The notes: generated from the letters alone by a model not told the origin. A stretch of DNA of 40,408 nucleotides from a virus (IMGVR_UViG_2529292759_000002:1-40408), one strand, 5' to 3'; positions 1 through 40,408 are shown, counted from the stretch's first letter. Numbers and translations: made by a program.

Positions 1-45
1 ATTGAGTGGGAATGATTAACAGCTAACTCATAGCAACTCATTCCT
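1..45. repeat. attL: attL: left copy of the 45-bp direct repeat bounding the prophage
   Basis: Bases 1-45 (ATTGAGTGGGAATGATTAACAGCTAACTCATAGCAACTCATTCCT) recur exactly at 40364-40408; integrase gene lies adjacent. Confidence 0.85.
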
Positions 46-63
46 ATTCAGATACTAATTTAA

Positions 64-94
64 CCCTCTGTTTTTACAGAGGGTTTTTGTTTTT
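64..94 (+). terminator. Intrinsic terminator-like hairpin just inside attL
   Basis: CCCTCTG / CAGAGGG stem with 6-nt loop followed by TTTTTGTTTTT. Confidence 0.5.
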
Positions 95-140
95 ATGTAT
101 TCATTTCTATTCACTCTACACCATATTTTTCGTCGGTACA

Positions 141-180
141 GGTGACGGTATTACCTTAAAGGTATACTCTCATACCGTCA
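141..180. promoter_or_regulatory. Integrase-proximal regulatory region: GGTGACGGTAT arm-like repeat plus a 15-bp palindrome (TTACCTTAAAGGTAT, 151-165)
   Basis: GGTGACGGTAT at 141-151 recurs at 40282-40292 near attR; TGACGGTA/TACCGTCA inverted repeat flanks the palindrome; 43 bp upstream of the int start. Confidence 0.45.
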
Positions 181-207
181 TGAAAATGGTTTCTATACGG
201 GTGAATT

Positions 208-1464
208 GTGCTTACCGATACAAAATTAAAAAACCTCAAGCCGCAGGACAAACTGTACAAGGTCTCCGATCGTGACGGGCTGTATGTAGCTGTGCTTACG
301 TCAGGCACGGTCTCGTTTCGCTATGACTACCGTATCAACGGTCGCCGCGAAACACTGGTAATCGGGCAGTATGGGCGTGACGGTATCAGCCTGGCAGAAG
401 CGCGAGAAGAACTGATTGCTGCAAAGAAGCTGCTTAAAGCAGGCCAGTCACCGGCTGCGGCTAAACGTGACGGTATCAAAAAGATTCGTGGTGCCGAGAC
501 GTTTGCGGTACATACCGACAGTTATATGAAACACGTCATCCTGGCTGACAGTACCCGCGCAATGAAGCAGGCGGTGATCGACCGTGACATACTTCCTGTT
601 CTTGGTAACAAAATGATGGCTGAAATTACCACATCGATGGTTCGTGATTTGTGTGACCGGATTGTCGAACGCGGTGGTCGGGCAACAGCAGTACAGGCCA
701 GGGAGATCATCAGCAGCGTATACCGTCACGCCAATGACCGTGGTCATGGTTTGTTTAATCCTGCGGCTGACATTAAACCTTCGTCTATCGCCATATTTAA
801 ACCACGAGAGCGAACACTGACACCAGAAGAAATTGGCCTGTTCTTCCGCACGCTGGATGCCATTGGTGCTATGGGCACTATGAAAATGGCTTTAAAACTG
901 GTGCTTATCACTATGGTTCGTAAGGGCGAATTCACCAATGCAACGTGGGATGAAATAGATTTTAAAAAATGGACATGGACAATTCCTTCAGACCGCATGA
1001 AGGGAAGCCGGGCGCATGTTATTTACCTGCCTAAACAGGCTCAGGATATATTGGTCGGGTTGCAGATGTGCGCTGGTGGAAGTGAATATCTGGTTCCTGG
1101 TCGTTACAATTTCCGGAAGCCATTATCTAATGCCGCGCTGAACTCTCTGATCGACAGAACGGTGAAAATAATAAATGAAGATGGTGAGCATATTCAGGGC
1201 TTCACCGTACACGATATGCGCCGTACAGCCAGTACGTTGTTGCATGAGGCTGGTTATCCTTCAGACTGGATTGAAAAGGCTCTGGCACATGAGCAGAAAG
1301 GTGTGCGCGCCGTATATAACAAAGCGGAATACGCCAGACAGCGCGCCTACATGTTGCAGCAGTGGGCCGATATGATTGATTCCTGGATTAACGGGGAGCA
1401 TACAGATCTGATTCCGTTCTCCCCGTCGAAGTTTGAGAGGTGGATGGAAGACAGTAATAAATAA
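208..1464 (+). CDS. int: Tyrosine recombinase / phage integrase, P4-type (GTG start)
   Basis: 418 aa; N-terminus MLTDTKLKNLKPQDKLYKVSDRDGLYV typical of P4/CP4-57-type integrases; C-terminal HDMRR and catalytic Tyr region (VRAVYNKAEY). Confidence 0.9.
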   Translation: MLTDTKLKNLKPQDKLYKVSDRDGLYVAVLTSGTVSFRYDYRINGRRETLVIGQYGRDGISLAEAREELIAAKKLLKAGQSPAAAKRDGIKKIRGAETFAVHTDSYMKHVILADSTRAMKQAVIDRDILPVLGNKMMAEITTSMVRDLCDRIVERGGRATAVQAREIISSVYRHANDRGHGLFNPAADIKPSSIAIFKPRERTLTPEEIGLFFRTLDAIGAMGTMKMALKLVLITMVRKGEFTNATWDEIDFKKWTWTIPSDRMKGSRAHVIYLPKQAQDILVGLQMCAGGSEYLVPGRYNFRKPLSNAALNSLIDRTVKIINEDGEHIQGFTVHDMRRTASTLLHEAGYPSDWIEKALAHEQKGVRAVYNKAEYARQRAYMLQQWADMIDSWINGEHTDLIPFSPSKFERWMEDSNK

Positions 1465-1466
1465 TT

Positions 1467-2126
1467 CTATCCTTCCTGGACTTTGGTAAGCGTCAGATTT
1501 CCGCAGAACACTGCGCCGGTGTCGATGTACATTTGGTTTGCATACACCAGTGGGTGATGTGCTGGCGTATGACCGAAGATGAACAAATCGGCACCGGTTA
1601 TCTCCGAGACAATACCGTCCTGCGCGTCGCTAACCCGCTCACGATTCCATATCACCATTTCTTCCGGTACTGGCTTATCGAATGCGTATTCGTTGTGCGG
1701 GTAGTCTGCGTGGCAGATGACGACCTTCTTATTGCCGGTAACCAGTTCGATAATCATCGGGAGGTTGGTAACCTTTGGCAGAAGGTATTTGAGTTGCACA
1801 TCCTGCTCAGAATCAAGTTGGTGCCACCATCCACCGCCGTTTGACATCCAATGTCCGAAACTTCCGCCGTTGACCAGTGCATCCAGCATCATCTGCTCAT
1901 GGTTGCCACGAACAGCTCGGAACCACGGCATAGTAATCAAATCCAGGCATTCGACGTTTTCAGCGCCGCGGTCAACAAGGTCACCAACGGAAATAAGCAA
2001 ATCGCGCGCCGGGTCGAATGAAACTTTGTCGAGTTCGTTCATCAGCAGTGTGTAGCACCCATGCAGATCGCCGACGACGAAGATATTGCACCAGTCAGCG
2101 CCATTGATGCGTTGATATAGGTTCAT
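1467..2126 (-). CDS. Ser/Thr protein phosphatase, lambda PPase type
   Basis: Start taken at internal Met (MNLYQ...); GDLHG, GDLVDRG and GNHE metallophosphatase motifs; long collinear similarity to lambda phosphatase as recalled. ATGA overlap with the upstream gene. Confidence 0.85.
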
Positions 2127-2785
2127 GCTGCACGCTCCCGCCCCTGGTTGTCTGTTGGTGACAGCGGAGCATTGCTGAATGCATTTGTTAATCCGCCAAT
2201 ATCCAACGCGTATCCAGGATGTAGTTGCACTGCCGGGTCTTCGCACTGATTACCCCAAACATCGAAACCATGAGACGTCTGGCGGGCGAACAGTTCAATG
2301 CGAGAAACATCGCCTAATAATTGCACAAGTTTTTCACGAACGATATCTGGCTTTCTTGAATGCTCAAGCCGCGGTGCGGTAAATGACTGAACGATCCCTG
2401 CATTAATGCGCGTAGGTAGTTTTCCCTTTACCGCAAACAGGCAATCTTCACTATTGGCGCGAGTCATGTGTCCCATACCCATAACCAGTTTATCTGGTTG
2501 TCGACTACCACATTTTATCCACGTGAAGCCCTTCATCGTCATCAGACGAAATCCCCAGGCTTCAACAACTTTTAGTGCTTCGAGTGGTTGTGTTGGCACC
2601 CACCACATGGCCAACAGACAGTTTTCAGCGGTCAAATCCCACACAGGAAGGCGGCAGATATCCAGCACACTCATAACCGGATATTTAAAACCGGCACCGC
2701 GATTACCATCTGCGGCTTTGTCCCGGTATACCCAGGGTGGATCTGCATAGATTAGTGTGTATTTCTTAGTCATAAACCACCCCAC
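2123..2785 (-). CDS. DNA N6-adenine methyltransferase, MT-A70-like (DPPW motif); orphan, no cognate nuclease seen
   Basis: IYADPPW motif near the N-terminus; 220 aa; start is GTG at 2785 or ATG at 2773. Confidence 0.7.
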
Positions 2786-3065
2786 AACATCCTATGCCGC
2801 TATAGTCGCCACGGCGAAGGCCGTTACCTTTTGTGATACATTGGTCCCTGCGAACCGCGATCCTTGCACGTTCAACATCACCAGAAGCAACATCCATACA
2901 CTGAAGCCAAAGGTGAGCGGCAATGCGGAACTGCCCTTTTTTCTCTCTTTCAATCGCGCGTTTTTCGATCTCTATCGCCGCAGGAGTAACGGCGACAATC
3001 TTTGACGGACTGCGCATTGAAACCTTATTCATGTGGTATTTTTCAAGTCGGCTTAACTTTCTCAC
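2766..3065 (-). CDS. Hypothetical protein (uncertain gene)
   Basis: 99-aa ORF in the leftward operon; no recognisable motif; overlaps the methyltransferase start. Confidence 0.3.
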   Translation of the reverse strand: MRKLSRLEKYHMNKVSMRSPSKIVAVTPAAIEIEKRAIEREKKGQFRIAAHLWLQCMDVASGDVERARIAVRRDQCITKGNGLRRGDYSGIGCCGVVYD

Positions 3066-3174
3066 TTAATCCAACCCTCTCTGAAAATTAATGCCAGCAG
3101 ATAAAGCCATGCTGAAACAGAGGCCAGGAATAAGTACCATCCTGACCATTTGCTCCAGTGCCTTAGCAGCGCAC

Positions 3175-3423
3175 TCATGCAGCGTTGCTCACGGGACGAT
3201 ATACACGTTGCTGAACAGGAGGCTTTTTACCCTGGAACTCTGCCGGGCTTGCTGCCTGACGTTCATCAAGCCAACGCTCAACTTCATCACGGTTCCATGC
3301 GCAGCGTTTATCGGTGATATACCAGCGTTTAGGAAATTCCCCTGCGCGCTCCATACGGTCGATAGTGCTCCATGACAGTGGCACCACCGCCAGGAGTTCT
3401 TTCTTACCTAATGCACCTTTCAT
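3175..3423 (-). CDS. AlpA/Xis-family small DNA-binding protein; candidate excisionase or regulator
   Basis: 82 aa; pattern LSWSTIDRMERAGEFPKRWYI...RCAWNRDEVERWLDER matches the AlpA/excisionase HTH signature. Confidence 0.65.
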   Translation of the reverse strand: MKGALGKKELLAVVPLSWSTIDRMERAGEFPKRWYITDKRCAWNRDEVERWLDERQAASPAEFQGKKPPVQQRVYRPVSNAA

Positions 3424-3472
3424 GAATACCTCTCTTGGTTGCAGTGCGGCGCACGTGGCGCCGCGGTGGTGG

Positions 3473-4495
3473 TTACTCGAATTCTGGACGCATATCGTTA
3501 AGCGTCATCATGAATTTTTGGTGATATTCATCACCGAGCTTTTCAGCCATGGTGTTAATTTCATTTTCAGCGCGCTTGAACATCGTTTTTGCATCTTCAG
3601 CAGATGGATCCAGGCTATTAAGTATCGCGATGATATATTCTCGAGCTTCTTCTCGTTCTGAATCTGAAATTGGCGACAGGTGTTGACGCTCATCGTCAAC
3701 TACGGAATATTCACCAGTGATAACAGCTGCGTTATCTTGGCTAAGTCCAGCTTCAGCGCGCTCATCCATAACAACAGCCTTCTGCATTTCAATAGAAACA
3801 GGAAGATATTTGAATAGTCGGCGAATTACTGTTTTTTTAGCCATCTCATCGAAGTGATCAACCCATGGGCCACTGCTACCGGCTTTGCTCAGTGCACGAA
3901 CTTTCTCAATGTCTGCCCGGCTCATAACTTCAAATTGGACTCCGCCATCTTTCAGTCGTGCAACGGCGTAAACGTGCGTTAATTCTCCGCGGTCACCTGT
4001 TTCGCAAGGTAAATGCTCGAGCGTTTCTTCCAGGCCGTATGAGTAGCTGAATTTGTCGTTTGTATGTACGGTACGAGCCGAGATACTCAGGATCTGCCCA
4101 GAGCGGCGGGCAAGGTCAATCATTCCGCGATAGCCGATAATCAGCTGTGCTTCTGTAGATACGGTTTCCCATCTTCCATTTACTTTCTGGCGTTTGTCGA
4201 ACGGTATCAGGTAAGCGTGTCCAAGAGTTCCGCCTGGTTCAAGACCCAATTGGGCACATTGCATAATTGCCCCCAGGAAGCTGGCTTGGTCGCATGATGC
4301 AAGTTTTGGAACCTTTCGGATCTCTGTGGTTGCTATGCGCGCCAGACGGTCTGCTGTCATGTGCTTTGGAAGTGCCAAAGCCATCTGAGCTTTAATTTTT
4401 GGGTCTGCCAGAAGTCCGGCCAGAGTTGTTGGTTTCTCATTATGATGTGCAACTTGGTTACCGGTAGCCGCTGCCTTAAGTGCATTGATAGACAT
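3473..4495 (-). CDS. recT: RecT-family single-strand annealing recombinase
   Basis: 340 aa; strong similarity to Rac RecT as recalled (IIGYRGMIDLARRSGQI, THVYAVARLKDGG.QFEVM, GPWV.H..EMAKKT.IRRLFKYLPVSIE). Confidence 0.9.
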   Translation of the reverse strand: MSINALKAAATGNQVAHHNEKPTTLAGLLADPKIKAQMALALPKHMTADRLARIATTEIRKVPKLASCDQASFLGAIMQCAQLGLEPGGTLGHAYLIPFDKRQKVNGRWETVSTEAQLIIGYRGMIDLARRSGQILSISARTVHTNDKFSYSYGLEETLEHLPCETGDRGELTHVYAVARLKDGGVQFEVMSRADIEKVRALSKAGSSGPWVDHFDEMAKKTVIRRLFKYLPVSIEMQKAVVMDERAEAGLSQDNAAVITGEYSVVDDERQHLSPISDSEREEAREYIIAILNSLDPSAEDAKTMFKRAENEINTMAEKLGDEYHQKFMMTLNDMRPEFE

Positions 4496-4504
4496 TTTTT
4501 CTCC

Positions 4505-5404
4505 TTACTTCATTCTGAAGACGCGTTGTGTCGTTGTTGTTTTGAATTTTTCGAATAACTCAGGGTGTACTGACTGGAATAGCTTCTGGTCGAATCTGTT
4601 GCTGATCTGAGATTTCCATGTGCAGAGCGGCTTTCCGTCCAGGGTCAGGACTGAGTGCTCTTGCATGTACATCTTCAGCTTCTCTTCTGATATAGCTATT
4701 TCTTCTTCCAGTGATTTTCTGCGTGACTTCATGTCTCGTAGATCGTTGAATAGTGCGAGTGCCTTTCCGTCAGCCTCGATACTTGTCCCGGCATCTTTCT
4801 CAAACATCAGCGATACATCGCTTACGCTGGTAGCTTCCGGCGGGTTAAGATTTTTCACTCGGTCCCAGAAAGCGATTTCTTTTTCTAAGATCGCCTGGAT
4901 AGTTTCTTCATCACGCTCAACCCGATAGATTCGGAAGTCGTCGCCACCGATAAGCACACCGAAAACGCATACCTGTTTGTTTGTAACCATCAACCCGTGC
5001 ATGGCCTGGGCCGTGTAATGCACAGGAATTGCATCTGTCTGGATTTCTCCCCATTCTTTGGCTTTGAACGGACTAACTGTTTTGATCTCAATGTTCTCGC
5101 CTGACGCTGCTTCTGCATCGATCTCAGCTGCAATAAAATCATAATCACGGTGGATATAGCGGTTTCCGCGATGAACGATTTCCATCCCTGTTTCCTCAGA
5201 AAGCAGGTCTATTACGTATGGCTCCATACGCTGGCCACGCGTGAAAACTTTCTGCTTGCTTGGGTCTACTGGTTTGACACGTGGCTGGACCTTATCCAGA
5301 TAAACCTCAAGCGGGGTGCGCCATGGGCTAATTCCAAGAATCCCTGCAACATCGCTTCCTCCGATGTATTTTGTTCTATCCATGATTCCAGCGTTCCGCA
5401 TCAT
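4505..5404 (-). CDS. YqaJ-type viral recombinase exonuclease (partner of RecT)
   Basis: 299 aa; YIGGSD..GILG and TRGQ..EP motifs typical of YqaJ/lambda-exo-like nucleases; immediately upstream of recT with ATGA overlap to the preceding gene. Confidence 0.8.
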   Translation of the reverse strand: MMRNAGIMDRTKYIGGSDVAGILGISPWRTPLEVYLDKVQPRVKPVDPSKQKVFTRGQRMEPYVIDLLSEETGMEIVHRGNRYIHRDYDFIAAEIDAEAASGENIEIKTVSPFKAKEWGEIQTDAIPVHYTAQAMHGLMVTNKQVCVFGVLIGGDDFRIYRVERDEETIQAILEKEIAFWDRVKNLNPPEATSVSDVSLMFEKDAGTSIEADGKALALFNDLRDMKSRRKSLEEEIAISEEKLKMYMQEHSVLTLDGKPLCTWKSQISNRFDQKLFQSVHPELFEKFKTTTTQRVFRMK

Positions 5405-5700
5405 GCCGCGTCCCTCTGCCCATCAAGCTGATCCGCCAGATCCCAGCGCGCTATAATTGCCATTGCCTCGCGCCGGTAGGCATCCATCAGTTCTTCGAAC
5501 TCAGGGCTGTCTTTAGCAGCCTCCAGCACTTCCTGACGAACGCCTTTGCCTGTTACAACGTCGAAAGTTGAGGACAGTTGATGAAGTCGGATGCTCTCAA
5601 TCAGTTCAACTTGTCGGTCATATAGCTGTTCTGACAGGCGGTAGTCCTTGTCGAATGCCAGCATGATTTTTTGAAGATTTTTCTGCTGATTAACGTTCAT
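5401..5700 (-). CDS. Hypothetical early protein (Gam/Abc-like position upstream of the recombination genes)
   Basis: About 100 aa from MNVNQQ; translationally coupled to flanking genes; function not recognisable. Confidence 0.5.
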   Translation of the reverse strand: MNVNQQKNLQKIMLAFDKDYRLSEQLYDRQVELIESIRLHQLSSTFDVVTGKGVRQEVLEAAKDSPEFEELMDAYRREAMAIIARWDLADQLDGQRDAA

Positions 5701-7344: not shown

Positions 7345-8136
7345 ATGAGCAGACATGCAACAGATTGGGCCTGGGAGACAGATCCAGGTAGCTCGTCATT
7401 AAAGCTCATACTGCTCTCGATGGCTGACAGAGCCGATGAATATAACCTCTGCTACCCCAGCATAGAACGCCTCGTTAAAGACACTTGCCTGAATAAAAAA
7501 ACCGTGCAGGCCGGACTTATATCGCTCATGAAAATGGGGCTTATTTCAGATACCGGGGAGAGAAAGGGAGCGACAAAAAGAGTGCGGGTTTTCTCTCTTA
7601 ATATAACCAAAAACGGGAACATTAAAGGCAACCGAGAGGGGGGCAATGAACCCGAAAACGGTAATGTTACCGAAAACGGGAATATACCCAAAAACGGGAT
7701 GTTGAATGATCCCAAAAACGGGATCCAGAACCAGTCATATAACCAGTCATTTAACCAAGAGAGGGAGAGCAGGACAAAAAACGGGGATTCTGTGCATCAT
7801 GACCCCGGCGCAAACAACGCCGTGATGAATAACTTTGTTCCTCCTAGTGGGCCAGGGCAATTAGGCAAATTTGTCATGCATGAACAATGGCAGCCATCAG
7901 ATGACTTTCTTCGGAAAAGCTCATTGCAGGGGATCTACCTGGACAGTCTGCCAACGGCACAGGAACTTGCAGAGTTCAGAATTTACTGGATGGCTGAGGG
8001 TAAGGCATACCATCAGGCACAGTGGGAGCAGAAGCTGGCAAGGCGGCTGCAGATTAGCAGACAGAAGCAATCAACATTACCTGATAACAACGTTCCGCAC
8101 TGGAACAGCCCTGAAGCATGGGAGGATTTCTTGTGA
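7345..8136 (+). CDS. Replication initiator (O-like) with an internal iteron-encoded linker
   Basis: 263 aa; N-terminal winged-helix-like region; central repeated KNGN/ENGN peptide encoded by the DNA iterons; directly upstream of the P homologue. Confidence 0.65.
   Translation: MSRHATDWAWETDPGSSSLKLILLSMADRADEYNLCYPSIERLVKDTCLNKKTVQAGLISLMKMGLISDTGERKGATKRVRVFSLNITKNGNIKGNREGGNEPENGNVTENGNIPKNGMLNDPKNGIQNQSYNQSFNQERESRTKNGDSVHHDPGANNAVMNNFVPPSGPGQLGKFVMHEQWQPSDDFLRKSSLQGIYLDSLPTAQELAEFRIYWMAEGKAYHQAQWEQKLARRLQISRQKQSTLPDNNVPHWNSPEAWEDFL
7607..7724. repeat. Iteron array (candidate origin of replication) inside the O-like gene
   Basis: Five copies of CC(A/G)AAAACGG(G/T)A(A/T) starting near 7607, 7652, 7670, 7688 and 7712 (three at 18-bp spacing), followed by an AACCAGTCAT direct repeat. 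Confidence 0.65.
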
Positions 8137-14639: not shown

Positions 14640-15488
14640 TTACTTTTGTGTTTTTGATTTTCTTTGATAGGTGGAATTTAAATCACCATTTATATTTACT
14701 AGAGGATTATTCAATAATGTACTGATTTCTGGATTGTTAATTCCAGTAACGCCAAGTTTCTTTACGGACTCATTAAAGTCTTGTAATGATTTTAGACCTA
14801 CAAGCCCATTAGCAATTGTATTATTTGTTGCCAAAGGAATGTTTTTCTTATAGGACTCATATTCGTTTTTTAAATTTTTGTGAGTTTTTTCTAGATTTTC
14901 TAGTTTAGATGTTGTTTCATCAATAACCTTAGATAATTCTAAAATACGAGCTTGTGCTGCGCGCAGTTCTGTCTCCCTCTCTTTCAATTCAGATGTGAGT
15001 TGTCCCATTCTGTCTTTTGAAAGAATTATTTCCTCTTTCATGTCTTGAATGTTTTTTTCAGCGCCTGTTTTTACTTTTTCGTAAGTAATGTCTTTTTTAG
15101 CCAGCAATCTCTGTAGCCGTGTTTCACGTTGTATTTTTCTTGCCTTCCGGTGGTTTTCGATTGAGTCATTATTATCAAGAGGTTTTGCTTGCCATACGTT
15201 AATGATATTGTTTACCCATGGTAATAGGCAGCAGATAGTAATTACAGATAAGCATGGATAAAACATAACAGTTTTCCATGTGCTGTTATCTGAGATGTAT
15301 GAAATTTTATCTATTATATTTGATTTGCTAAAAAACAGATAAAGAAGTGATTTCCAGTTGAAGGCGCACCAGGACATAACAAAAGCACCAAGCACAGGGT
15401 TTTTAGCTCGATGCACGGCAGTATTGGCAGTAGATAAAAACAGCTCTTTGAACGATTCGAACATACTAATTACCTTAAAGTTTTTCAT
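14640..15488 (-). CDS. AT-rich moron: unknown protein with two N-terminal hydrophobic segments and a long coiled-coil region
   Basis: Reverse strand between the terminase and portal genes; markedly AT-rich; start at MKNFKV (15488) or an internal Met at 15464; coiled-coil-like segment ETRLQRLLAKK...ELRAAQARILELSKVIDETTSKLENLEKTHKNLKNE. Confidence 0.6.
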   Translation of the reverse strand: MKNFKVISMFESFKELFLSTANTAVHRAKNPVLGAFVMSWCAFNWKSLLYLFFSKSNIIDKISYISDNSTWKTVMFYPCLSVITICCLLPWVNNIINVWQAKPLDNNDSIENHRKARKIQRETRLQRLLAKKDITYEKVKTGAEKNIQDMKEEIILSKDRMGQLTSELKERETELRAAQARILELSKVIDETTSKLENLEKTHKNLKNEYESYKKNIPLATNNTIANGLVGLKSLQDFNESVKKLGVTGINNPEISTLLNNPLVNINGDLNSTYQRKSKTQK

Positions 15489-15507
15489 GATTATACCTTT
15501 AAGGTAA
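15470..15507. promoter_or_regulatory. Palindromic site (ATACCTTTAAGGTAA 15493-15507) plus half-site (TTACC 15470-15474) at the moron start; a TATAAT hexamer overlaps
   Basis: Minus strand reads TTACCTTAAAGGTATAATCATG; a second ATTACCTTAAAG copy lies 25 bp downstream in the transcript. Confidence 0.5.
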
Positions 15508-15521
15508 TTTGTGGTCATCAG

Positions 15522-15711: not shown

Positions 15712-15788
15712 TGGCGTGGCATGCAGGATTCGAACCTGCGACCAACCGCTTAGAAGGCGGTTGCTCTGTCCAACTGAGCTAATGCCAC
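15712..15788 (-). tRNA. tRNA-Arg (anticodon UCU), argU-like
   Basis: Hand-folded cloverleaf: acceptor GTGGCAT/ATGCCAC, D-stem GCTC/GAGC, anticodon stem ACCGC/GCGGT with loop CTTCTAA, T-arm GCAGG-TTCGAAT-CCTGC, encoded CCA; 77 nt. Confidence 0.85.
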
Positions 15789-21922: not shown

Positions 21923-24393
21923 TGGCTATCAGTTGGATCCAGCCCAGCTTTGCTGGTGGTGAGATTGGACCGTCGTTGTACGGACGTATCGACATGGCGA
22001 AGTACCAGGTGGCATTGCGCAAGTGCGATAACTTTATCGTGCGGCAGTATGGCGGCGTTGAGAATCGACCTGGTACGCGTTTTGTCGGTGCCGCCAAATA
22101 TCCAAATCGGAAATGCCGCCTGATCCCGTTCCAGTTCTCGACGGTTCAGACTTATGCTCTGGAGTTCGGACACCAGTACATGCGCGTTATCAAAGATGGT
22201 GCGTTGGTGCTGAACAGCAGCAATGTTATTTATGAAATTTCCACGCCATATACTGAAGCCGATCTGTTCCGAATTAAATTCACGCAAAGCGCAGACGTGC
22301 TTACGCTGGTTCATCCGGCATACCCGCCGAAAGAGTTGCGCCGCTATGCGCATGACAACTGGCAACTGGTTGATGTGGTAACGAAGAACGGGCCATTTGA
22401 AGATATCAATATTGACGAGTCAGTGACGGTTTATGCCAGCGCCAGCACCGGGACAATTACGCTAACGGCAAGCGCCTCTATTTTTGGCGCGGAGCAGGTA
22501 GGCAAATTGTTCTATCTGGAACAGCCTGCAGTGGATTCTGTGCCGGTATGGGAAACCAGTAAGAGTACGTCGATTGGCGATATTCGCCGAGCAGACAGTA
22601 ACTACTATCGCGCCGTTAAAGCAGGCAAAACAGGTACTTTGCGCCCTTCGCATACAGAAGGCACATCATGGGATGGCTGGGGCGGATCCGGTGATGATGA
22701 TACTGGCATTGAGTGGGAATATCTGCACAGTGGTTTTGGCATTGCCCGTATCACTGCTGCAAATGGAACTACTGCAACTGCCGAGGTGATTTCCTATATC
22801 CCTTCGCAGGTAGTTGGCGAGGATAATGCCAGCTATAAATGGGCTAAATATGCCTGGAACAGTGTTAATGGTTATCCTGGCACTGTTGTTTATTATCAAC
22901 AACGTCTTTACTTCGCCGCATCGACTGCGTTTCCTCAGACTATCTGGGCCAGCCGTACCGGGGATTATAAGGATTTTGGCAAAAGCAATCCTACGCAGGA
23001 TGACGACAGAATTATCTACACCTATGCCGGGCGTCAGGTTAATGAGATCCGTCACCTGATTGATGTTGGTTCGCTGGTGGCGCTGACTTCCGGAGGTGAG
23101 TACGTCATCACTGGCGACCAGAACAAAGTGCTTACCCCATCATCATTTGCATTCAGCTCTCAGGGATCAAATGGCTCGAGCAATGTCCCACCAATTGCCG
23201 TGGCGAATATTGCTCTGTTCGTCCAGGAGAAAGGCAGTGTTGTCCGTGATCTGGCCTACTCATTCGATGTTGACGGCTATCAGGGGAACGACCTGACCAT
23301 CCTTGCCAATCATCTTTTTCAGAAGCACAGTATTGTTGACTGGTGCTTCTCTATTGTCCCTTACTCCAGCGCCTTCTGCATTCGTGATGACGGTAAATTA
23401 CTGGTGATGACCTATTTGCGTGATCAACAGGTTTTTGCATGGGCACCACAATCCAGTACCGGAAAATATGAAAGCACATGCAGTATCAGCGAAGGCAATG
23501 AAGATGCGGTGTATTTCGTCGTTAACCGAACCGTTAACGGGCAAACAGTGAGATACATCGAGCGACTGTCCAGCCGTTTATTTACCAGCGATGAAGATGC
23601 TTTCTTTGTTGATTCTGGCCTTAGCTATGATGGAAGAAATACGTCTGACAGAACGATGATCATCACTGGTGGTTCTGGCGAATGGGATTACCGCGAGGAA
23701 TATACAATCAGTGTTTCTGGTGGTGCGTACTTCACCAGTAGTGATGTCGGTGCGCAACTACAGTTCCCTTATACCGGAACTGATCCTGATACTGGCGATG
23801 AAGTGTCAAAAGAATTACGTTGCGACATTATTTCTGTAACCAGCAATACCGCAGTAGTGGTTCGTGCTAACAGGAACGTCCCGCCATCCCTCAGGAATGT
23901 GGCCACCACGAACTGGCAGATGGCGCGCCGGACATTTGGAGGCCTGTCTCATCTTGAAGGCCAGACCGTAAACATTCTCTCTGATGCGAACGTGGAACCA
24001 CAGAAAGTGGTTTCCGGAGGTGCCGTCACGCTGGAATCACCGGGGGCTGTAGTGCACATCGGCCTGCCAATAACTGCTGAATTCGAAACACTGGATATCA
24101 ACATTAACGGACAGGAAACGCTGCTGGACAAAAAACAGGTGATCCCGTCCGTTACTCTGGTTGTGAATGCCAGTCGCGGCATCTGGGCGACTACGCCCGG
24201 CGGTAAATGGTACGAATATCCACAGCGTGAATTCGAGTTCTACGATGATCCTGTTGATGATGCTACCGGAAAAGTAGAAGTGAAACTGGACAGTAACTGG
24301 GGCAAAAACGGACGTGTAAAAATCCGTCAGCTTGATCCGTTGCCGCTGTCTGTTCTTGCCGTTATTCCTCGCCTTACTGTTGGGGGATTCTGA
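21922..24393 (+). CDS. Tail tube / nozzle protein B-like (gp12-like) candidate
   Basis: 823 aa; synteny with the T7-type tail module. Confidence 0.5.
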   Translation: MAISWIQPSFAGGEIGPSLYGRIDMAKYQVALRKCDNFIVRQYGGVENRPGTRFVGAAKYPNRKCRLIPFQFSTVQTYALEFGHQYMRVIKDGALVLNSSNVIYEISTPYTEADLFRIKFTQSADVLTLVHPAYPPKELRRYAHDNWQLVDVVTKNGPFEDINIDESVTVYASASTGTITLTASASIFGAEQVGKLFYLEQPAVDSVPVWETSKSTSIGDIRRADSNYYRAVKAGKTGTLRPSHTEGTSWDGWGGSGDDDTGIEWEYLHSGFGIARITAANGTTATAEVISYIPSQVVGEDNASYKWAKYAWNSVNGYPGTVVYYQQRLYFAASTAFPQTIWASRTGDYKDFGKSNPTQDDDRIIYTYAGRQVNEIRHLIDVGSLVALTSGGEYVITGDQNKVLTPSSFAFSSQGSNGSSNVPPIAVANIALFVQEKGSVVRDLAYSFDVDGYQGNDLTILANHLFQKHSIVDWCFSIVPYSSAFCIRDDGKLLVMTYLRDQQVFAWAPQSSTGKYESTCSISEGNEDAVYFVVNRTVNGQTVRYIERLSSRLFTSDEDAFFVDSGLSYDGRNTSDRTMIITGGSGEWDYREEYTISVSGGAYFTSSDVGAQLQFPYTGTDPDTGDEVSKELRCDIISVTSNTAVVVRANRNVPPSLRNVATTNWQMARRTFGGLSHLEGQTVNILSDANVEPQKVVSGGAVTLESPGAVVHIGLPITAEFETLDININGQETLLDKKQVIPSVTLVVNASRGIWATTPGGKWYEYPQREFEFYDDPVDDATGKVEVKLDSNWGKNGRVKIRQLDPLPLSVLAVIPRLTVGGF

Positions 24394-33565: not shown

Positions 33566-34261
33566 TCAGAAGAACCCTGCCTTGTCGTTGATGTACTCCG
33601 CGTGGGTCTGGATATCACGCAGGCATTTGCTCACACCGACGATGTAGCAGAACATGGTGGTCAGTTCCGCCGCCGCGCCCGATACGTCGTGCCCGTCTTC
33701 CTGTAACTGGTTCAGCAGATTCATCAGCAGTGAGTTCTCCGTCAGGCCGAGAACACCAGACGGCGAATGAATCAGGCTACGGTAGCCGGGCTTCAGTGGG
33801 GCACTGTAGGTTTTGTTCTCTATCTTCATCGCCTGCATTACTGCTGACGCCGTGGCGTTGGCTACCTGGTCGGCAACCATCTTTATGCGTTCTTCCTGCG
33901 GGAGCGAGTTTTTAATGTAACTTCCGGTGCGGCGGATCTGAGGAAGAACCTCACCTGTAACCCATTTACGAAAGCGGTAGGGGATAGTGCCTGGTGTCAC
34001 TGCGTCGCGGCAGCGGAGGATCAGTGTGTAGAGGCCTGACTCGGAGATGATGATCGATTCTTGCTCACCGCCAGGGGTGTCGGTTGAAGCGACGCCCTTC
34101 TCATCATCATCAAGTTTTCGAACAGCATCTCGATGGTTTGCTATGCCTATAGCCCGACAAACATCTGAAGCGATAAACCATGGCTCACCATTAATGACGA
34201 TTACCCGTATATCGGCTTGGGATTCGAAAGAAAAAATGGACGTGCTTTTTGTAGCTGTCAT
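33566..34261 (-). CDS. Bro-N / KilA-N domain antirepressor (Ant-like)
   Basis: 231 aa; N-terminal pattern IRVIVINGEPWFIASDVCRAIGIANHRDAVRKL...ESGLYTLILR typical of Bro-N antirepressors; C-terminal domain paralogous to the small upstream gene. Confidence 0.75.
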   Translation of the reverse strand: MTATKSTSIFSFESQADIRVIVINGEPWFIASDVCRAIGIANHRDAVRKLDDDEKGVASTDTPGGEQESIIISESGLYTLILRCRDAVTPGTIPYRFRKWVTGEVLPQIRRTGSYIKNSLPQEERIKMVADQVANATASAVMQAMKIENKTYSAPLKPGYRSLIHSPSGVLGLTENSLLMNLLNQLQEDGHDVSGAAAELTTMFCYIVGVSKCLRDIQTHAEYINDKAGFF

Positions 34262-34418
34262 AGTGGTTACCTTTTAGTCTGGTTAATCACCACTACCGAC
34301 GCCAATCGGTTGGTGGTGAACTGTGCAGGGTTGGCGTAACCGGCTAAAAGGACCCGGCGCACCTTTCGGTGCCCCCACACAGCCCACCATAATACGAATG
34401 TGGCCGTGCTATACGCAT

Positions 34419-34438
34419 AAAAAAACCGCTTGCGCGGT
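34419..34438 (-). terminator. Intrinsic terminator between the small SOS-box gene and the antirepressor gene
   Basis: Minus-strand ACCGCGCAAGCGGT hairpin followed by TTTTTTT. Confidence 0.55.
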
Positions 34439-34530
34439 GAATGCGCCTTTTAGTAATCCGGGACGCCAATCCCGGCACTGGATTTTGCCAGTGCTCGATT
34501 ACTATGGCACAAGAGGAGTGCGTTGTAAAT

Positions 34531-34925: not shown

Positions 34926-35029
34926 TATCTATTCGTATTTACAGCCTTTCTATCCATATGTGGTTTTCCAGGTAATAGAATAACCAGATATGCGGCGCAA
35001 CGGGTGCTGCGACTATCTGGAGATTTAAC

Positions 35030-38000
35030 ATGACGGTCTCAACCGAAGTTGACCACAACGAATACACCGGTAACGGCGTTACGACATCGTTTCCGTATAC
35101 TTTTCGAATTTTCAGAAAATCAGACCTGGTTGTTCAGGTGTCTGACCTGAACGGAAACGTAACAGAATTGGTTCTGGATACCGGTTATACGGTAACTGGG
35201 GCGGGCACTTATAGTGGCGGTTCTGTGGTTCTTCCGTCTCCGCTTGCTACTGGATGGCGAATTACGATAGATCGTGTGCTTGATGTAGTGCAGGAGACAG
35301 ACCTTCGCAATCAGGGAAAATTTTTCCCCGAAGTGCATGAAGATGCCTTTGACTACCTGACGATGCTGATCCAGCAATGTTTTGGGTGGTTCAGACGTGC
35401 ATTGATGAAACCATCTTTGCTTGCAAAATATTACGATGCAAAGCAAAACAAAATTTCTAACCTTGCAGATCCATCATTTGAGCAGGACGCTGTAAATAAT
35501 CGCTCAATGCGTAATTATGTCGATGCTGCAATCGCCGGGGTTGTTGGTGGTTTTGGTTGGTTTATTCAGTATGGTTCTGGGGCTGTGTACCGAACGTTCC
35601 AGGATAAAATGCGTGATGCTATTAGCCCCAAAGATTTTGGAGCTGTTGGTGATGGTATAAATGACGATTCCACTGCAATAAGCGCGTGCCTTGAAGCCTC
35701 ATCTCCAGGTTATAAAATTGACGGATTAGGGCTTACTCTTAAAGTATCAACTCTTCCGGATGTCAGTCGATTTAAAAATGCTCGTTTTTTATTTGAGAGA
35801 ATACCGGGCCAGCCTCTTTTTTATGCTTCTGAAGATTTTATCCAGGGAGAGTTATTTAAAATTACAGATACACCGTGGTACAACGCCTGGACGCAGGATA
35901 AAACGTTTGTATATGACAATGTCATCTATGCGCCTTTTATGGCTGGAGACCGCCATGGTGTAAATAACCTCCATGTTGCATGGGTTCGCTCAGGAGATGA
36001 CGGGAAGACCTGGACAACGCCGGAATGGCTTACAGATTTACATGAAAACTATCCCACAGTTAACTATCACTGCATGAGTATGGGGGTTGTCAGAAATCGC
36101 CTTTTTGCTGTAATTGAGACGCGGACCGTGAGCGGAAATAAACTGCAGGTTGCAGAGTTGTGGGATCGCCCAATGAGTCGCAGCCTTCGCGTTTATGGTG
36201 GTATAACGAAAGCAGCAAATCAGCAAGTCGCTTATATTCGCATTACTGATCACGGATTATTTGCTGGTGATTTTGTCAACTTCTCAAACTCTGGTGTTAC
36301 AGGTGTTACCGGGAATATGACGGTGACTACTGTTATTGATAAAAATACTTTTACAGTTACGACGCAAAATACCCAGGATGTGGATCAGAATAACGAGGGT
36401 AGATACTGGAGTTTTGGTACATCATTTCACTCGTCACCATGGAGAAAAACCAGTCTTGGAACTATTCCTTCTTTTGTTGACGGAAGCACTCCTGTTACTG
36501 AGATTCACAGTTTTGCGACGATTAGCGATAACAGTTTTGCTGTTGGCTACCATAATGGTGATATTGGTCCACGCGAGCTTGGGATACTCTATTTCTCTGA
36601 TGCTTTCGGTTCTCCTGGTAGCTTTGTTCGCAGACGCATACCTGCAGAATATGAGGCGAATGCATCTGAGCCATGTGTAAAATATTATGATGGCATTCTG
36701 TATCTGACGACCAGGGGGACATTAAGTACTCAACCCGGTAGTTCATTGCACAGAAGCTCTGATTTAGGTACATCATGGAATTCTCTTCGCTTCCCAAATA
36801 ATGTTCATCACTCAAACCTTCCTTTTGCCAAAGTTGGCGATGAGCTGATTATTTTTGGCAGTGAGCGCGCATTTGGTGAGTGGGAAGGAGGAGAACCTGA
36901 TAACCGTTATGCAGGAAACTATCCAAGAACATTTATGACCAGAGTTAACGTCAATGAGTGGAGTCTGGATAATGTAGAGTGGGTTAATGTTACTGATCAG
37001 ATTTATCAGGGCGGAATAGTTAACTCTGCGGTTGGTGTTGGTTCAGTTTGTATCAAAGACAACTGGCTGTACTACATTTTCGGTGGGGAAGACTTTCTAA
37101 ACCCATGGAGCATAGGGGATAACAACAGAAAATATCCTTATGTTCACGATGGTCACCCGGCTGATTTGTATTGTTTCAGGGTGAAAATTAAACAGGAAGA
37201 ATTTGTTTCAAGGGATTTTGTCTACGGAGCCACTCCTAACAGAACGCTTCCTACTTTTATGTCGACGTCAGGCGTGAGGACGGTTCCTGTACCCGTTGAT
37301 TTCACAGATGATGTTGCCGTCCAGTCACTGACTGTCCATGCAGGTACATCAGGACAAGTTCGCGCGGAAGTCAAACTTGAGGGTAATTACGCCATTATTG
37401 CGAAGAAAGTACCGTCTGATGATGTTACCGCTCAGAGATTAATCGTTAGCGGCGGTGAAACAACGTCTTCAGCAGATGGTGCAATGATAACGTTGCATGG
37501 TTCCGGAAGCAGTACTCCACGTCGCGCGGTATATAACGCACTCGAACATCTTTTTGAGAACGGAGATGTTAAACCTTATCTTGATAATGTAAATGCTCTT
37601 GGTGGTCCGGGAAACAGGTTCTCGACAGTTTATCTTGGCTCCAATCCTGTGGTTACCAGTGACGGAACATTAAAGACAGAGCCGGTCTCTCCTGACGAAG
37701 CATTGCTGGATGCCTGGGGTGACGTCAGGTATATCGCTTATAAATGGCTGAACGCTGTCGCTATAAAGGGGGAAGAAGGGGCGAGGATACATCATGGTGT
37801 AATCGCGCAGCAACTTCGTGATGTTCTTATTTCTCACGGACTCATGGAAGAAGAAAGCACAACATGCCGCTATGCCTTTCTTTGCTATGACGATTATCCC
37901 GCAGTATATGATGACGTCATTACTGGCCAAAGGGAAATGCCGCTGACTGATAATGACGGGAGCATCATTGTTGATGAGGATGATAATCCAGTGATGGTAA

Positions 38001-38149
38001 TAGAAGACATCATTGAGCGCGTTGAAATAACGCCAGCAGGATCTAGATGGGGGGTCAGACCTGATCTCTTATTCTATATCGAGGCAGCATGGCAGCGCAG
38101 AGAAATGGATAAGATAAAAGAGCGGGTTCAGTCTCTGGAAGAACGTTAA
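35030..38149 (+). CDS. Tailspike / tail fibre depolymerase with T7 gp17-like N-terminal anchor and C-terminal intramolecular chaperone domain
   Basis: 1039 aa; N-terminus YTGNGVTTSFPYTFRIFRKSDLVV resembles the T7 tail-fibre N-terminal domain; DFGAVGDGINDDSTAI motif typical of beta-helix (pectate-lyase-like) enzymes; Asp-box-like SGDDGKTW and SDLGTSW; C-terminal region (YLDNVNALGG...RIHHGVIAQQLRDVL...) resembles peptidase-S74 chaperone domains. Confidence 0.8.
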   Translation: MTVSTEVDHNEYTGNGVTTSFPYTFRIFRKSDLVVQVSDLNGNVTELVLDTGYTVTGAGTYSGGSVVLPSPLATGWRITIDRVLDVVQETDLRNQGKFFPEVHEDAFDYLTMLIQQCFGWFRRALMKPSLLAKYYDAKQNKISNLADPSFEQDAVNNRSMRNYVDAAIAGVVGGFGWFIQYGSGAVYRTFQDKMRDAISPKDFGAVGDGINDDSTAISACLEASSPGYKIDGLGLTLKVSTLPDVSRFKNARFLFERIPGQPLFYASEDFIQGELFKITDTPWYNAWTQDKTFVYDNVIYAPFMAGDRHGVNNLHVAWVRSGDDGKTWTTPEWLTDLHENYPTVNYHCMSMGVVRNRLFAVIETRTVSGNKLQVAELWDRPMSRSLRVYGGITKAANQQVAYIRITDHGLFAGDFVNFSNSGVTGVTGNMTVTTVIDKNTFTVTTQNTQDVDQNNEGRYWSFGTSFHSSPWRKTSLGTIPSFVDGSTPVTEIHSFATISDNSFAVGYHNGDIGPRELGILYFSDAFGSPGSFVRRRIPAEYEANASEPCVKYYDGILYLTTRGTLSTQPGSSLHRSSDLGTSWNSLRFPNNVHHSNLPFAKVGDELIIFGSERAFGEWEGGEPDNRYAGNYPRTFMTRVNVNEWSLDNVEWVNVTDQIYQGGIVNSAVGVGSVCIKDNWLYYIFGGEDFLNPWSIGDNNRKYPYVHDGHPADLYCFRVKIKQEEFVSRDFVYGATPNRTLPTFMSTSGVRTVPVPVDFTDDVAVQSLTVHAGTSGQVRAEVKLEGNYAIIAKKVPSDDVTAQRLIVSGGETTSSADGAMITLHGSGSSTPRRAVYNALEHLFENGDVKPYLDNVNALGGPGNRFSTVYLGSNPVVTSDGTLKTEPVSPDEALLDAWGDVRYIAYKWLNAVAIKGEEGARIHHGVIAQQLRDVLISHGLMEEESTTCRYAFLCYDDYPAVYDDVITGQREMPLTDNDGSIIVDEDDNPVMVIEDIIERVEITPAGSRWGVRPDLLFYIEAAWQRREMDKIKERVQSLEER

Positions 38150-38152
38150 AAA

Positions 38153-38180
38153 AAAGCCCGCAAAATATTGCGGGTATCAA
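38153..38180 (-). terminator. Hairpin terminator after the tailspike gene, best formed on the minus strand
   Basis: GCCCGCAA-AATA-TTGCGGGT preceded by A8 on the plus strand (U8 after the hairpin on the minus strand); only ATCAAAAAC follows on the plus strand. Confidence 0.5.
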
Positions 38181-38455
38181 AAACGGAGTTGGTGAAAAGT
38201 TATCTTTGAATTCTATCATGAATCAGTACGTATTTTAAATACATGTTCAGGTTTATTACACCATAGCATTATTAAATACAAAATTAAGTCTATGGTTCCT
38301 GTACAACTGCCCCCACTCTGCTGGCTCGTTCTGTAAAATCATTAGTACTTTTATTGAGATATATGATATGGAACAATAATGATTCATATATGGTTTACTA
38401 TGCGGGTTTAGTCATCAATAATTGACTGGCTTATAGATAGTAAACAGGAGAAAGT

Positions 38456-38860
38456 ATGTCTGCTCAAGTAACAAGTGAGCAATTAAATCAGTTGCTTAGT
38501 TTTGGTTCTCTTGCTGCAGTTATTGCAGGTGTCCCTCCGGAGGTTGCTTTAGGGGCTTTGGCTGGGGCGGTAATTTTTGTTACCTCTGCAGTAGAGTACC
38601 CCATCCGTCGCCGGGTGCTCCTGTCGATGCTCAGCTTTCTTTGCGGCCTTCTCTTTTACAAACCAGCAGCATCAATTCTTATCGGCATAGCCAGCCTGAT
38701 CCCTACCATCACGCAGGACTCTTTTGAAAAAGGGATTGTTTTCTCTGCAGGCGCATTCGTGTCAGCAATTGTCGCTGTGCGTATTGGTATATGGCTCTAT
38801 CACCGTTCCGATAATCCACGCGAGTTAATTCCGGGGAGAAAAGACGATGGTAACGCATGA
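38456..38860 (+). CDS. Holin-like membrane protein (lysis cassette, first gene)
   Basis: 134 aa with 3-4 hydrophobic helices and a charged C-terminus; immediately upstream of a second membrane protein and the endolysin. Confidence 0.55.
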   Translation: MSAQVTSEQLNQLLSFGSLAAVIAGVPPEVALGALAGAVIFVTSAVEYPIRRRVLLSMLSFLCGLLFYKPAASILIGIASLIPTITQDSFEKGIVFSAGAFVSAIVAVRIGIWLYHRSDNPRELIPGRKDDGNA

Positions 38861-39155
38861 GTTTTTTTTGCTTATCACTAATGCAGTTATTTGCACTGGC
38901 ATAGCAATTCGCGTTGTCACATTCCGGCGTAACGGCTCTCAACATCGAAGGTGGGGAGGATGGCTTGCTTATTTCCTGATTGTTGCTGCGGCCAGTATTC
39001 CTGTTCGAGTCGCCTATGCAATCTGGTTACGTACGCCAATGGCTGTGGATTTATCTGAGGTCATTATCAACGCTGTCATGCTGGCTGCGGTTATTAAAAC
39101 GCGCGGTAACGTCGTTCAAATTTTTAAAGTATCGAGGTCTAAACATGGAGATTAA
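38847..39155 (+). CDS. Second small membrane protein of the lysis cassette (holin or antiholin candidate)
   Basis: 102 aa, 2-3 hydrophobic helices; GGGGAG Shine-Dalgarno; overlaps both neighbours. Confidence 0.5.
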
Positions 39156-39774
39156 ACAATTCCAGCGAGCTGCTGGTATCAGCGAGGCACTGGCCGCACG
39201 CTGGTTCTCGCATATAACTTCTGCGATGAAAGAGTTTGGTATCAGCAAAGCAGAAGATCAGGCAATGTTTATTGCTCAAGTCGGGCATGAGTCTGGGGGC
39301 TTCACCAGGTTGCAGGAGAATTTCAACTACAGTGTCAGCGGACTGGCTAACTTCGTTCGGGCTGGGCGTCTCACTCAGGGGCAGGCTAATGCACTGGGGC
39401 GCCGTGCTGGTGAACCACCATTGCCACTTGAGCGCCAGCGCGCGATCGCAAATATGGTATACAGCAAACGCATGGGGAACAATGCCCCTGGTGATGGCTG
39501 GAATTACCGAGGGCGCGGACTTATCCAGATTACCGGTTTGAATAACTATCGTGATTGCGGAAACGGTCTGAAGGTTGACCTGCTGGAGAGCCCTGAACTG
39601 CTGGCGCAGGACGGATATGCGGCTCGTAGCGCGGCGTGGTTCTTCGCCAGCAAAGGATGCATGAAGTATACCGGCGATATTGCACGTGTAACTCTGATTA
39701 TCAATGGTGGCCGGAACGGCATCGACGACCGGCGAGCGCGGTACATCACTGCCAGTAAGGTGCTGGCGGTATGA
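39145..39774 (+). CDS. Endolysin, glycoside hydrolase family 19 (chitinase-like) type
   Basis: Start at the internal ATG (MEIKQF...) with GAGGT Shine-Dalgarno; motifs [27 protein letters not shown] and [10 protein letters not shown] resemble GH19 lysozymes. Confidence 0.75.
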
Positions 39775-40253
39775 TCTGGGCATTCGTAAAAGCATACTGG
39801 AAACAGTTTCTTATCGTGGCAGTGCTTGCTGTTCTGGTCATATCAGGAGTGGTTGCCTGGAATATACACGGCAGTCGCCAGTACGATGCCGGGTATGCTC
39901 AGGCGGAAGAAGACCGCAAAGCCGAAGAAGACAAAGTTCGTCAGTACTACGAACAGGAGAAAGTGACCAATGAACGTGAAGCTCAGCAGAGGATCGACCA
40001 GGCGCGCAATGATGCTCTTGATGCTGCCGCTAGCGCTGGCCGGTTGCAGCAACAACTCTTTGCCATCCGTGAGCAGCTCAGGCAGTATAACGCCATTGTC
40101 GGCGCTGGGTCGTCAGCCGCAGACACCGGAGTTTTGCTTGCCGACGTGCTCAGCAAATCTCTCGAGAGAAACAGACAACTGGCAGAGTATGCTGACCGGG
40201 CAGCCGAAGCCGGAAGAGTCTGCGAAAAACAGTACGACACTTTGACCAGATAG
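39771..40253 (+). CDS. Rz-like inner-membrane spanin
   Basis: 160 aa; N-terminal transmembrane helix ([17 protein letters not shown]) then coiled-coil; overlaps the endolysin stop; embedded lipoprotein ORF in another frame. Confidence 0.7.
40009..40245 (+). CDS. Rz1-like outer-membrane lipoprotein spanin, embedded in the Rz gene
   Basis: ORF in a different frame inside Rz; lipobox-like signal [13 protein letters not shown]; Pro/Ser-rich mature part; exact start (39970, 40009 or 40012) uncertain. Confidence 0.55.
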   Translation: MMLLMLPLALAGCSNNSLPSVSSSGSITPLSALGRQPQTPEFCLPTCSANLSRETDNWQSMLTGQPKPEESAKNSTTL

Positions 40254-40281
40254 CATGGCATTTTTCATGGTACTGATTTCC

Positions 40282-40303
40282 GGTGACGGTATATAAAACG
40301 GTA
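40282..40303. promoter_or_regulatory. attR-proximal arm-type repeats (GGTGACGGTAT and a second ACGGTA)
   Basis: GGTGACGGTAT at 40282-40292 is identical to 141-151 near attL; ACGGTA repeats again at 40298-40303. Confidence 0.4.
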
Positions 40304-40363
40304 CGGGAAAAATTGAGATTTGGAAAAATGTTATCACTCAATTGGTTATGGTTATCGTAAATA

Positions 40364-40408
40364 ATTGAGTGGGAATGATTAACAGCTAACTCATAGCAAC
40401 TCATTCCT
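40364..40408. repeat. attR: attR: right copy of the 45-bp direct repeat
   Basis: Identical to bases 1-45. Confidence 0.85.

Follow-up and report, generated by a model that had tools for sequence, protein, structure and literature searches.

The viral sequence IMGVR_UViG_2529292759_000002 (40,408 nucleotides, analysed over its full length and called the window here) begins and ends with the same 45 bp and has a tyrosine integrase gene, int, close to its left end. This raises the question of which bacterial site the phage uses, and of whether these 45 bp are the sequence that the phage attachment site (attP) and the bacterial attachment site (attB) have in common, as a description made from the sequence alone (the sequence-only reading) had proposed. 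We conclude, with a probability of roughly 90%, that the window is the genome of a temperate podovirus of the phiV10/epsilon15 type (Uetakevirus), bounded by attachment (att) junctions at the 3' end of guaA. The true common core of attP and attB is the 17-mer ATTGAGTGGGAATGATT, and the repeat owes its 45-bp length to something other than the recombination site.

The terminal repeat is exact, with positions 1 to 45 identical to positions 40364 to 40408 as the sequence-only reading had stated, and it is the longest direct repeat in the window. It opens with ATT GAG TGG GAA TGA, which is I-E-W-E-stop, the final four codons of guaA plus the stop codon. In the near-identical lysogen MS 196-1, the last base of guaA corresponds to window position 15, and yfgI is the gene on the far side of the prophage. 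Window positions 1 to 1500 match 564 of 5,426 complete Escherichia coli genomes, where the aligned region is annotated as guaA and then a tyrosine integrase, and the closest complete E. coli genome matches the window with 96% coverage and 99.0% identity. A tRNA, tmRNA or small RNA target is ruled out, since ARAGORN and Rfam are blank at both ends and the core is guaA coding sequence plus stop. The sole ARAGORN call is an internal tRNA-Arg(TCT) at 15712 to 15788, and Rfam families match the window only at that tRNA-Arg and at isrK and C4 (34309 to 34494). The earlier suspicion that the target is not a tRNA gene was therefore well founded, and its companion claim, that the repeats are the att junctions of an integrated phage whose integrase is of the P4/SXT type, is likewise supported. 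The genes that bear on recombination are as follows.

208 to 1464, plus strand: tyrosine integrase gene int, of the epsilon15 cluster (IntSXT/P4-like), assigned from Pfam domains and identity.
3175 to 3423, minus strand: small DNA-binding protein of the AlpA family (Pfam Phage_AlpA, E = 3e-5), a candidate excisionase.

The integrase has the Pfam domains Arm-DNA-bind_3 (PF13356), Phage_int_M (PF22022) and Phage_integrase (PF00589), and shares 98 to 99% identity with its phiV10 and ZX5 counterparts and 87% with the one in epsilon15. As previously described, int points away from the left end and converges on a block of leftward genes beginning at 1467. The closest phage records to the window as a whole are vB_EcoP_PAS61, phiv142-3, ZX5, TL-2011b and phiV10, and its structural module is of the epsilon15 type.

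The attachment site is already known, having been shown experimentally for very close relatives. For vB_EcoP_ZX5, attP and attB are both attgagtgggaatgatt at the guaA 3' end, and attB and the left and right prophage junctions (attL and attR) were established by PCR and Sanger sequencing (PMC9782041); the same paper states that an identical core has been proven for phiV10 and epsilon15. A survey of tyrosine recombinases places an "epsilon15 cluster," all members of which target the guaA 3' flank, in the IntSXT subgroup (PMC8138268). The novelty implied by the sequence-only reading does not stand: the core is proven in close relatives, the preference of the integrase cluster for guaA is in the literature, and GenBank already has the arm repeats annotated (as GTGACGGTAT in the epsilon15 record).

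How much of the 45-bp repeat is core can be decided by comparing lysogens, empty sites and free phages, and these comparisons divide both copies of the repeat into two parts.

1 to 17, plus strand: left copy of the 17-bp att core ATTGAGTGGGAATGATT, of which bases 1 to 15 are four guaA codons (I-E-W-E) and the TGA stop.
18 to 45, plus strand: 28 bp of phage-borne sequence at the start of the P' arm, miscounted as core; absent from empty sites and variable between related phages.
40364 to 40380, plus strand: right copy of the 17-bp att core, located by repeat comparison.
40381 to 40408, plus strand: 28 bp of P'-arm type that close the right end, atypical of a single lysogen.

In MS 196-1, attL and attR are identical over ATTGAGTGGGAATGATT only, after which attR turns into the native guaA 3' untranslated region (UTR) and terminator. 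A right-junction query (window positions 40150 to 40408) matched 373 E. coli genomes at ≥80% coverage, and in all but five of the 40 matches listed the alignment ends at core position 17 (base 231 of the query). Ten further lysogens with an identical last phage protein, all of them single, have an attR consisting of the 17-mer and the native UTR (10/10). A synthetic empty site made of the guaA end, the 17-mer and the native UTR is unbroken in 4,463 of the 5,426 E. coli genomes, and these sites are without the 45-mer. A search for the 45-mer itself gave 516 places in 508 records from 507 genomes; nearly every one is at guaA by a prophage, and a genome rarely has more than one. A 33-mer spanning core positions 4 to 36 gave no exact hit among 185,579 species-representative genomes. 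In free phages, represented by phiV10 and another three viral contigs, a single 45-mer directly joins the right arm of the window to its left arm. Given these empty-site, lysogen and free-phage comparisons, the 28 bases past the 17-mer are phage P'-arm DNA. The 45-bp core of the sequence-only reading is thus not correct, since 28 of its 45 bases are missing from the empty sites, which have a different native 3' UTR instead.

If the core is 17 bp, the repeat at the right end of the window is too long for a single lysogen. The five listed E. coli genomes that have the full 45-mer at the right junction are all tandem lysogens (5/5), in which a second, related integrase gene begins ~160 bp past the right-junction 45-mer. 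Based on the finding of the full 45-mer at right junctions only in tandem lysogens, the right copy in the window is, on the simplest reading, probably a junction with another phage-type left arm that belongs to a tandem or remnant element; alternatively, the window was closed from the circular attP form. Tandem double lysogens at guaA, formed by related Uetakevirus with slightly different integrases, are present in FDAARGOS_1301, GPEC1337, Z1323CEC0007, 97-3250 and GPEC403-625. As a separate observation, the guaA site of E. coli BHD6 holds a degraded remnant whose int is truncated by IS1. Of the 5,426 genomes, 963 have the empty-site query split but only ~564 have this integrase type, which means that in several hundred the guaA 3' end must be rearranged or occupied by something else.

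The 28 phage-borne bases form part of a hairpin that is followed by a terminator.

3 to 50, plus strand: imperfect inverted repeat and predicted hairpin, in which 3 to 15 and 38 to 50 form 13 pairs, including 2 G-U pairs, around an inner GCTA/TAGC stem (22 to 25 with 31 to 34).
62 to 95, plus strand: phage-supplied rho-independent terminator, detected by a terminator scan as a stem (62 to 85) plus T-tract; annotated in epsilon15 and kept in all relatives.

The inverted repeat GGAATGA/TCATTCC, which had been assigned to the core on sequence grounds, is present (9 to 15 and 38 to 44), and it is the inner part of the 3-to-15/38-to-50 repeat, which overruns the 45-mer. It belongs to the phage-borne hairpin and is not a C/C' pair of core sites; its arms are ruled out as such sites because they are 22 bp apart, one of them is outside the attB identity, and the repeat reaches position 50. 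The predicted RNA fold of positions 1 to 100 has an energy of -35 kcal/mol (z = -7), and the main helix is 91.7% paired in 16 diverged elements, compared with 40 to 46% when the partner is slid. The alignment shows G-U/G-C switches and one compensated pair, and there is no covariation beyond the shuffle control, in which 49 of 500 shuffles reach the observed score. Sequence comparison thus points to a conserved hairpin of 13 to 15 bp, and its persistent G-U pairs favour a plus-strand transcript. The native UTR at empty sites has a weak 5-bp hairpin only, and the 45 bp between core and terminator are unrelated in the phage and native versions. The phage terminator nevertheless has exactly the stem (ACCCTCTGT...ACAGAGGGT) of the native guaA terminator (positions 39295 to 39325 of L001, the MS 196-1 locus), suggesting that a captured guaA 3' UTR gave rise to the phage arm. 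In the circular phage, hairpin and terminator lie between the lysis operon, which ends at 40253, and int.

The second feature that the sequence-only reading had connected with integration is the 11-mer GGTGACGGTAT just inside both ends, where it is exact at 141 to 151 and at 40282 to 40292. When one mismatch is allowed, GGTGACGGTAT has 8 matches in the window, compared with 0.31 expected, and none of 100 shuffles reaches 8; the 8-mer TGACGGTA has 8 exact copies, compared with 0.78 expected. The copies that flank the core are as follows.

131 to 139, plus strand: weak P' arm site CGTCGGTAC (6/9), 12 bp before the strong site; its TCGGTA is conserved in six phages.
143 to 151, plus strand: strong P' arm site TGACGGTAT, the core of the left 11-mer, at +131 from the guaA stop and kept in most of 29 relatives.
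172 to 180, minus strand: inverted P' arm site, which reads ATACCGTCA on the plus strand; relatives have an inverted copy at +160 to +172.
40284 to 40292, plus strand: strong P arm site TGACGGTAT, the core of the right 11-mer, within an invariant block and annotated in epsilon15.
40296 to 40304, plus strand: weak P arm site AAACGGTAC (6/9), 12 bp past the strong site in the same invariant block.

For the P' arm, integrase relatives were gathered from species-representative genomes, which gave 29 loci with 47 to 90% integrase identity from gammaproteobacterial (Citrobacter, Klebsiella, Pantoea, Morganella, Edwardsiella, Oceanimonas and Tolumonas), betaproteobacterial (Chromobacterium, Aquitalea, Cupriavidus, Aromatoleum and Methyloversatilis) and alphaproteobacterial (Caulobacter and Phenylobacterium) hosts. 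In these loci, the guaA end is 190 to 360 bp upstream of int, and the spacers between the two genes are otherwise unalignable, each consisting of a terminator hairpin followed by copies of GACGGTA at nearly constant offsets from the guaA stop. Two tandem copies with a 12-bp spacing are at +119/120 and +131/132, one inverted copy is at +170/171 (in the enteric phage group, at +160), and others are at +196, +266 and +289. The density of GACGGTA is 13.9/kb in the guaA-int spacers versus 0.56/kb elsewhere, which is a 25-fold enrichment. The P arm was footprinted with GenBank phages at 80 to 88% integrase identity, the best 80 IMG/VR relatives being 98 to 100% identical and therefore uninformative; the P-arm block TGACGGTATATAAAACGGTA is invariant in six such phages. 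In the GenBank record of epsilon15, GTGACGGTAT is annotated as "protein_bind: integrase" at the homologous P arm, at the P' arm and at two positions inside int.

Based on the positions kept in the 29 relatives, the invariant P-arm block and the Arm-DNA-bind_3 domain of the integrase, the GGTGACGGTAT 11-mers are very probably arm-type integrase sites, as had been guessed, and their motif is TGACGGTA(T). The idea is already in the epsilon15 annotation in the form of predicted integrase sites, yet it is now well supported by conservation. As a side observation, the 20-nt segment ATTACCTTAAAGGTATACTC between the P' arm sites (150 to 169) is partly palindromic and recurs in inverted orientation, at 95% identity, at 15489 to 15508; this recurrence, at the start of a variable open reading frame (ORF) near the tRNA-Arg gene, could be due to chance or could be a trace of recombination.

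Two further copies of the word lie within the integrase gene itself.

377 to 385, plus strand: copy of TGACGGTAT inside int, a probable distal arm site, read in frame as R-D-G-I and annotated in epsilon15.
467 to 475, plus strand: second copy of TGACGGTAT inside int, also read in frame as R-D-G-I and annotated in epsilon15.

Among the gammaproteobacterial relatives, the codon preceding the first of these sites is CGT, ATT, CCT, GCT or TCT and always ends in T, and the codon following the second is ATC, ATA, ATT or AAA. The glycine of the word is encoded by GGT in 19 of 19 gamma-branch sequences, versus 23% GGT at other conserved glycines. The word is kept although the neighbouring amino acids change, and its glycine is always GGT, which indicates, at the level of sequence, that the words within int are under selection as DNA and supports their role as distal arm sites. 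The betaproteobacterial and alphaproteobacterial relatives are without copies inside int and have longer spacers with extra copies instead. An inverted copy of TGACGGTA(T) inside int (721 to 728, minus strand) is a separate matter, being common to the window and one relative only (L027). It is a possible but tentative extension of these results that an ancient arm array of fixed register characterizes guaA-targeting integrases, with the distal sites of the gammaproteobacterial members inside int, and that the hairpin may alter 3'-end processing of guaA mRNA. If this were true, the integrase would bind its own gene, either as part of an extended P' arm of ~470 bp or for autoregulation.

Within the core, the following elements can be proposed.

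40358 to 40366, plus strand: putative C core-type integrase site TAAATAATT; six phages have an unchanged GTAAATA directly left of the core.
4 to 10, plus strand: putative overlap (strand-exchange) region GAGTGGG, proposed from symmetry and from analogy with GIsul2.
11 to 19, plus strand: putative C' core-type integrase site AATGATTAA, proposed from symmetry with 40358 to 40366; AATGAT is invariant in six phages.
40332 to 40370, no strand assigned: cluster of three one-mismatch matches to the integration host factor (IHF) consensus, weak, between the P-arm sites and the core.

In attP, the order is TAAATAATT, GAGTGGG, AATGATTAA, which is an inverted pair matching at 7 of 9 positions around a 7-bp spacer, and the GTAAATA immediately to the left of the core is invariant in the six phages even though homology with attB does not demand it. 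GIsul2, a genomic island, recombines at GAGTGGGA in the same guaA end and at TGGG/GGGA at secondary sites (PMC9376610). Because of the 7/9 symmetry, the invariant GTAAATA and the GIsul2 recombination site, we place the crossover, by analogy, within core positions 4 to 10 or 11, GAGTGGG(A). The epsilon15 record has IHF sites annotated at the place homologous to window positions 40332 to 40370.

Integration joins the phage to guaA inside the shared 17-bp ATTGAGTGGGAATGATT, which spans the four last codons and the stop. The phage side of the left junction supplies a replacement 3' UTR, consisting of 28 bp that complete the 13- to 15-bp hairpin with the guaA end and then of the terminator, and guaA would stay intact and terminated in the lysogen. 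In the mechanism that we propose, strand exchange would occur in GAGTGGG(A), between the core-type sites TAAATAATT and AATGATTAA, and a heterobivalent integrase would use its N-terminal arm-binding domain to bridge the core to the TGACGGTA(T) arm sites. The arm sites used would be the P-arm pair 12 bp apart (40284 to 40304) and the P' pair with the inverted copy (131 to 180), probably together with the two sites inside int (377 to 385 and 467 to 475), and the AlpA-like protein is the likely excision (directionality) factor.

Several observations weigh against this account, among them that identity in the known tandem lysogens runs for >200 bp, which means that a tandem alone does not explain why the repeat in the window stops at 45. 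No sigma-70-like promoter was detected upstream of int, there is no enrichment of IHF-consensus matches across the window (36 versus 42 expected), and the assignment of C, overlap and C' stands on a 7/9 symmetry and the analogy with GIsul2. The unexplained stop at 45 bp gives some weight to a different view of the right end, in which the window is a circular attP genome that was cut open at the core and written out with 45 bp of overlap at its ends, so that one sequence appears twice. The window ends joined through one 45-mer are the exact attP of phiV10 and other free-phage contigs, the window holds nothing host-specific beyond the attP content, and the repeat of a tandem lysogen is expected to extend far past 45 bp. 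However, the window starts at core position 1, which is the boundary of host/phage identity and no natural breakpoint for an assembly, no viral contig in IMG/VR has the 45-mer at both ends, and Uetakevirus records are mostly opened elsewhere. We regard a circular origin as a minority possibility, at about one chance in four, and a junction with a second element as the simpler explanation. Far less probable, and in our estimate very unlikely, is that the full 45 bp are a common core and that some host natively has guaA followed by AACAGCTAACTCATAGCAACTCATTCCT. The repeat in the window is exact across 45 bp, and the phage P' arm resembles a diverged guaA 3' UTR with the same terminator stem, which some host could carry as an allele. 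Against this stand the absence of the 33-mer from all the species-representative genomes scanned, the other UTR in every one of the unbroken E. coli sites, the 17-bp attR in every single lysogen inspected, and the fact that the 45-mer, once per genome, follows the prophage (507 genomes versus 564 with the integrase).

The arm words, too, have another possible explanation, namely, that the TGACGGTAT repeats bind a different factor, such as the AlpA-like excisionase, a repressor or a host protein, or that the copies within int reflect an R-D-G-I peptide repeat. Two copies do encode RDGI in frame, and two more exact copies lie far from the att site, at 23388 and 26313. However, the motif tracks the integrase clade rather than the phage type, being found beside int in otherwise dissimilar alphaproteobacterial and betaproteobacterial islands, and it occurs on both arms at fixed distances from the core. 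The integrase also has an arm-binding domain. The copies within the gene are retained while the flanking amino acids change, and GIsul2, whose integrase is 54% identical, uses a different repeated word, as expected if the integrase itself reads the word. We therefore consider binding by another factor improbable and retain the reading of these repeats as arm-type integrase sites.

Compared with epsilon15, phiV10 and ZX5, the window has the identical 17-bp core, ~190 bp upstream of int. The P-arm block and the terminator are shared as well, and GTGACGGTAT occupies the same four places as in the epsilon15 annotation. The window differs from these phages in its K1 endosialidase tailspike and its different morons, in that the best phage record covers 78% of its first 20 kb, and in that its right end shows 45 bp rather than 17. 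GIsul2 (with CMGI-3), also of the epsilon15 cluster, uses the same guaA 3' end, and its GAGTGGGA is positions 4 to 11 of the window core; in this island, alpA comes after a homologous integrase gene. In contrast with the window, GIsul2 is an island and not a phage and has a shorter common core, and its arm on Acinetobacter baumannii pAB3 bears the words CATGGTAT, CATGGCAT and GATACCATG and not TGACGGTAT. The pAB3 arm sequence rules out that the TGACGGTAT word is common to GIsul2, and arm-site specificity appears, from these sequences, to have diverged within the guaA-targeting cluster.

With lambda attP (P1/P2, P'1-3, IHF, Xis), the window shares an integrase with an N-terminal arm-binding domain, arm words that are distinct from the core and present on both arms, an int gene that adjoins the P' arm, and a small AlpA/Xis-like gene close by. 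Unlike lambda, the window has an integrase of the IntSXT/P4-like subgroup, a different arm word, an attB at the 3' end of a protein-coding gene, an array with an inverted copy and probable sites inside int, and IHF sites that are putative. The P4/CP4-57 integrases belong to the same broad subgroup, and in both systems a replacement 3' end keeps the target gene working; the difference is that the target of the window is protein coding rather than a tRNA or tmRNA gene, and its core has no tRNA features.

Other features of the window lie away from its attachment site. The tailspike gene (35030 to 38149) encodes a complete endosialidase, with End_N_terminal, beta-propeller, beta-barrel, tail-spike and S74 chaperone domains, and this Uetakevirus should therefore be specific for K1-capsulated E. 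coli. Adjacent matches to isrK (77.9 bits) and to the C4 antisense RNA (77.7 bits), at 34309 to 34494 on the minus strand, lie upstream of a BRO-N/antirepressor-like ORF (33566 to 34261), and the region looks like a c4-ant immunity module of the P1/P7 type, in a podovirus. The tRNA-Arg(TCT) gene (15712 to 15788, minus strand) adjoins a variable leftward ORF of 292 amino acids (14640 to 15518), in place of which MS 196-1 has a different ORF. The 19-mer AATATAACCAAAAACGGGA is present four times (79 to 100% identity) at 7600 to 7723, inside a DnaT-like replication gene (7345 to 8136), and these repeats resemble origin iterons.

For these common E. coli and Salmonella prophages, the site can be annotated as the guaA 3' end with a 17-bp core, and this site is occupied in ~18% of complete E. 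coli genomes. An overlong terminal repeat at guaA is a sign of tandem or remnant elements, or of a circularised sequence, and not of a longer core, and boundary callers that choose the longest flanking repeat will mis-size such att sites. The modest comparative gain is a clear arm word and its layout for the guaA-targeting integrase cluster, which includes islands in many Proteobacteria and has among its members GIsul2, a carrier of sulfonamide resistance. What is mildly new is the codon-level evidence that the two predicted sites inside int are real, the practical caution about overlong terminal repeats at guaA as signs of tandem or remnant elements, and the finding of how deep the arm-site layout goes and how constant its register is in three proteobacterial classes.

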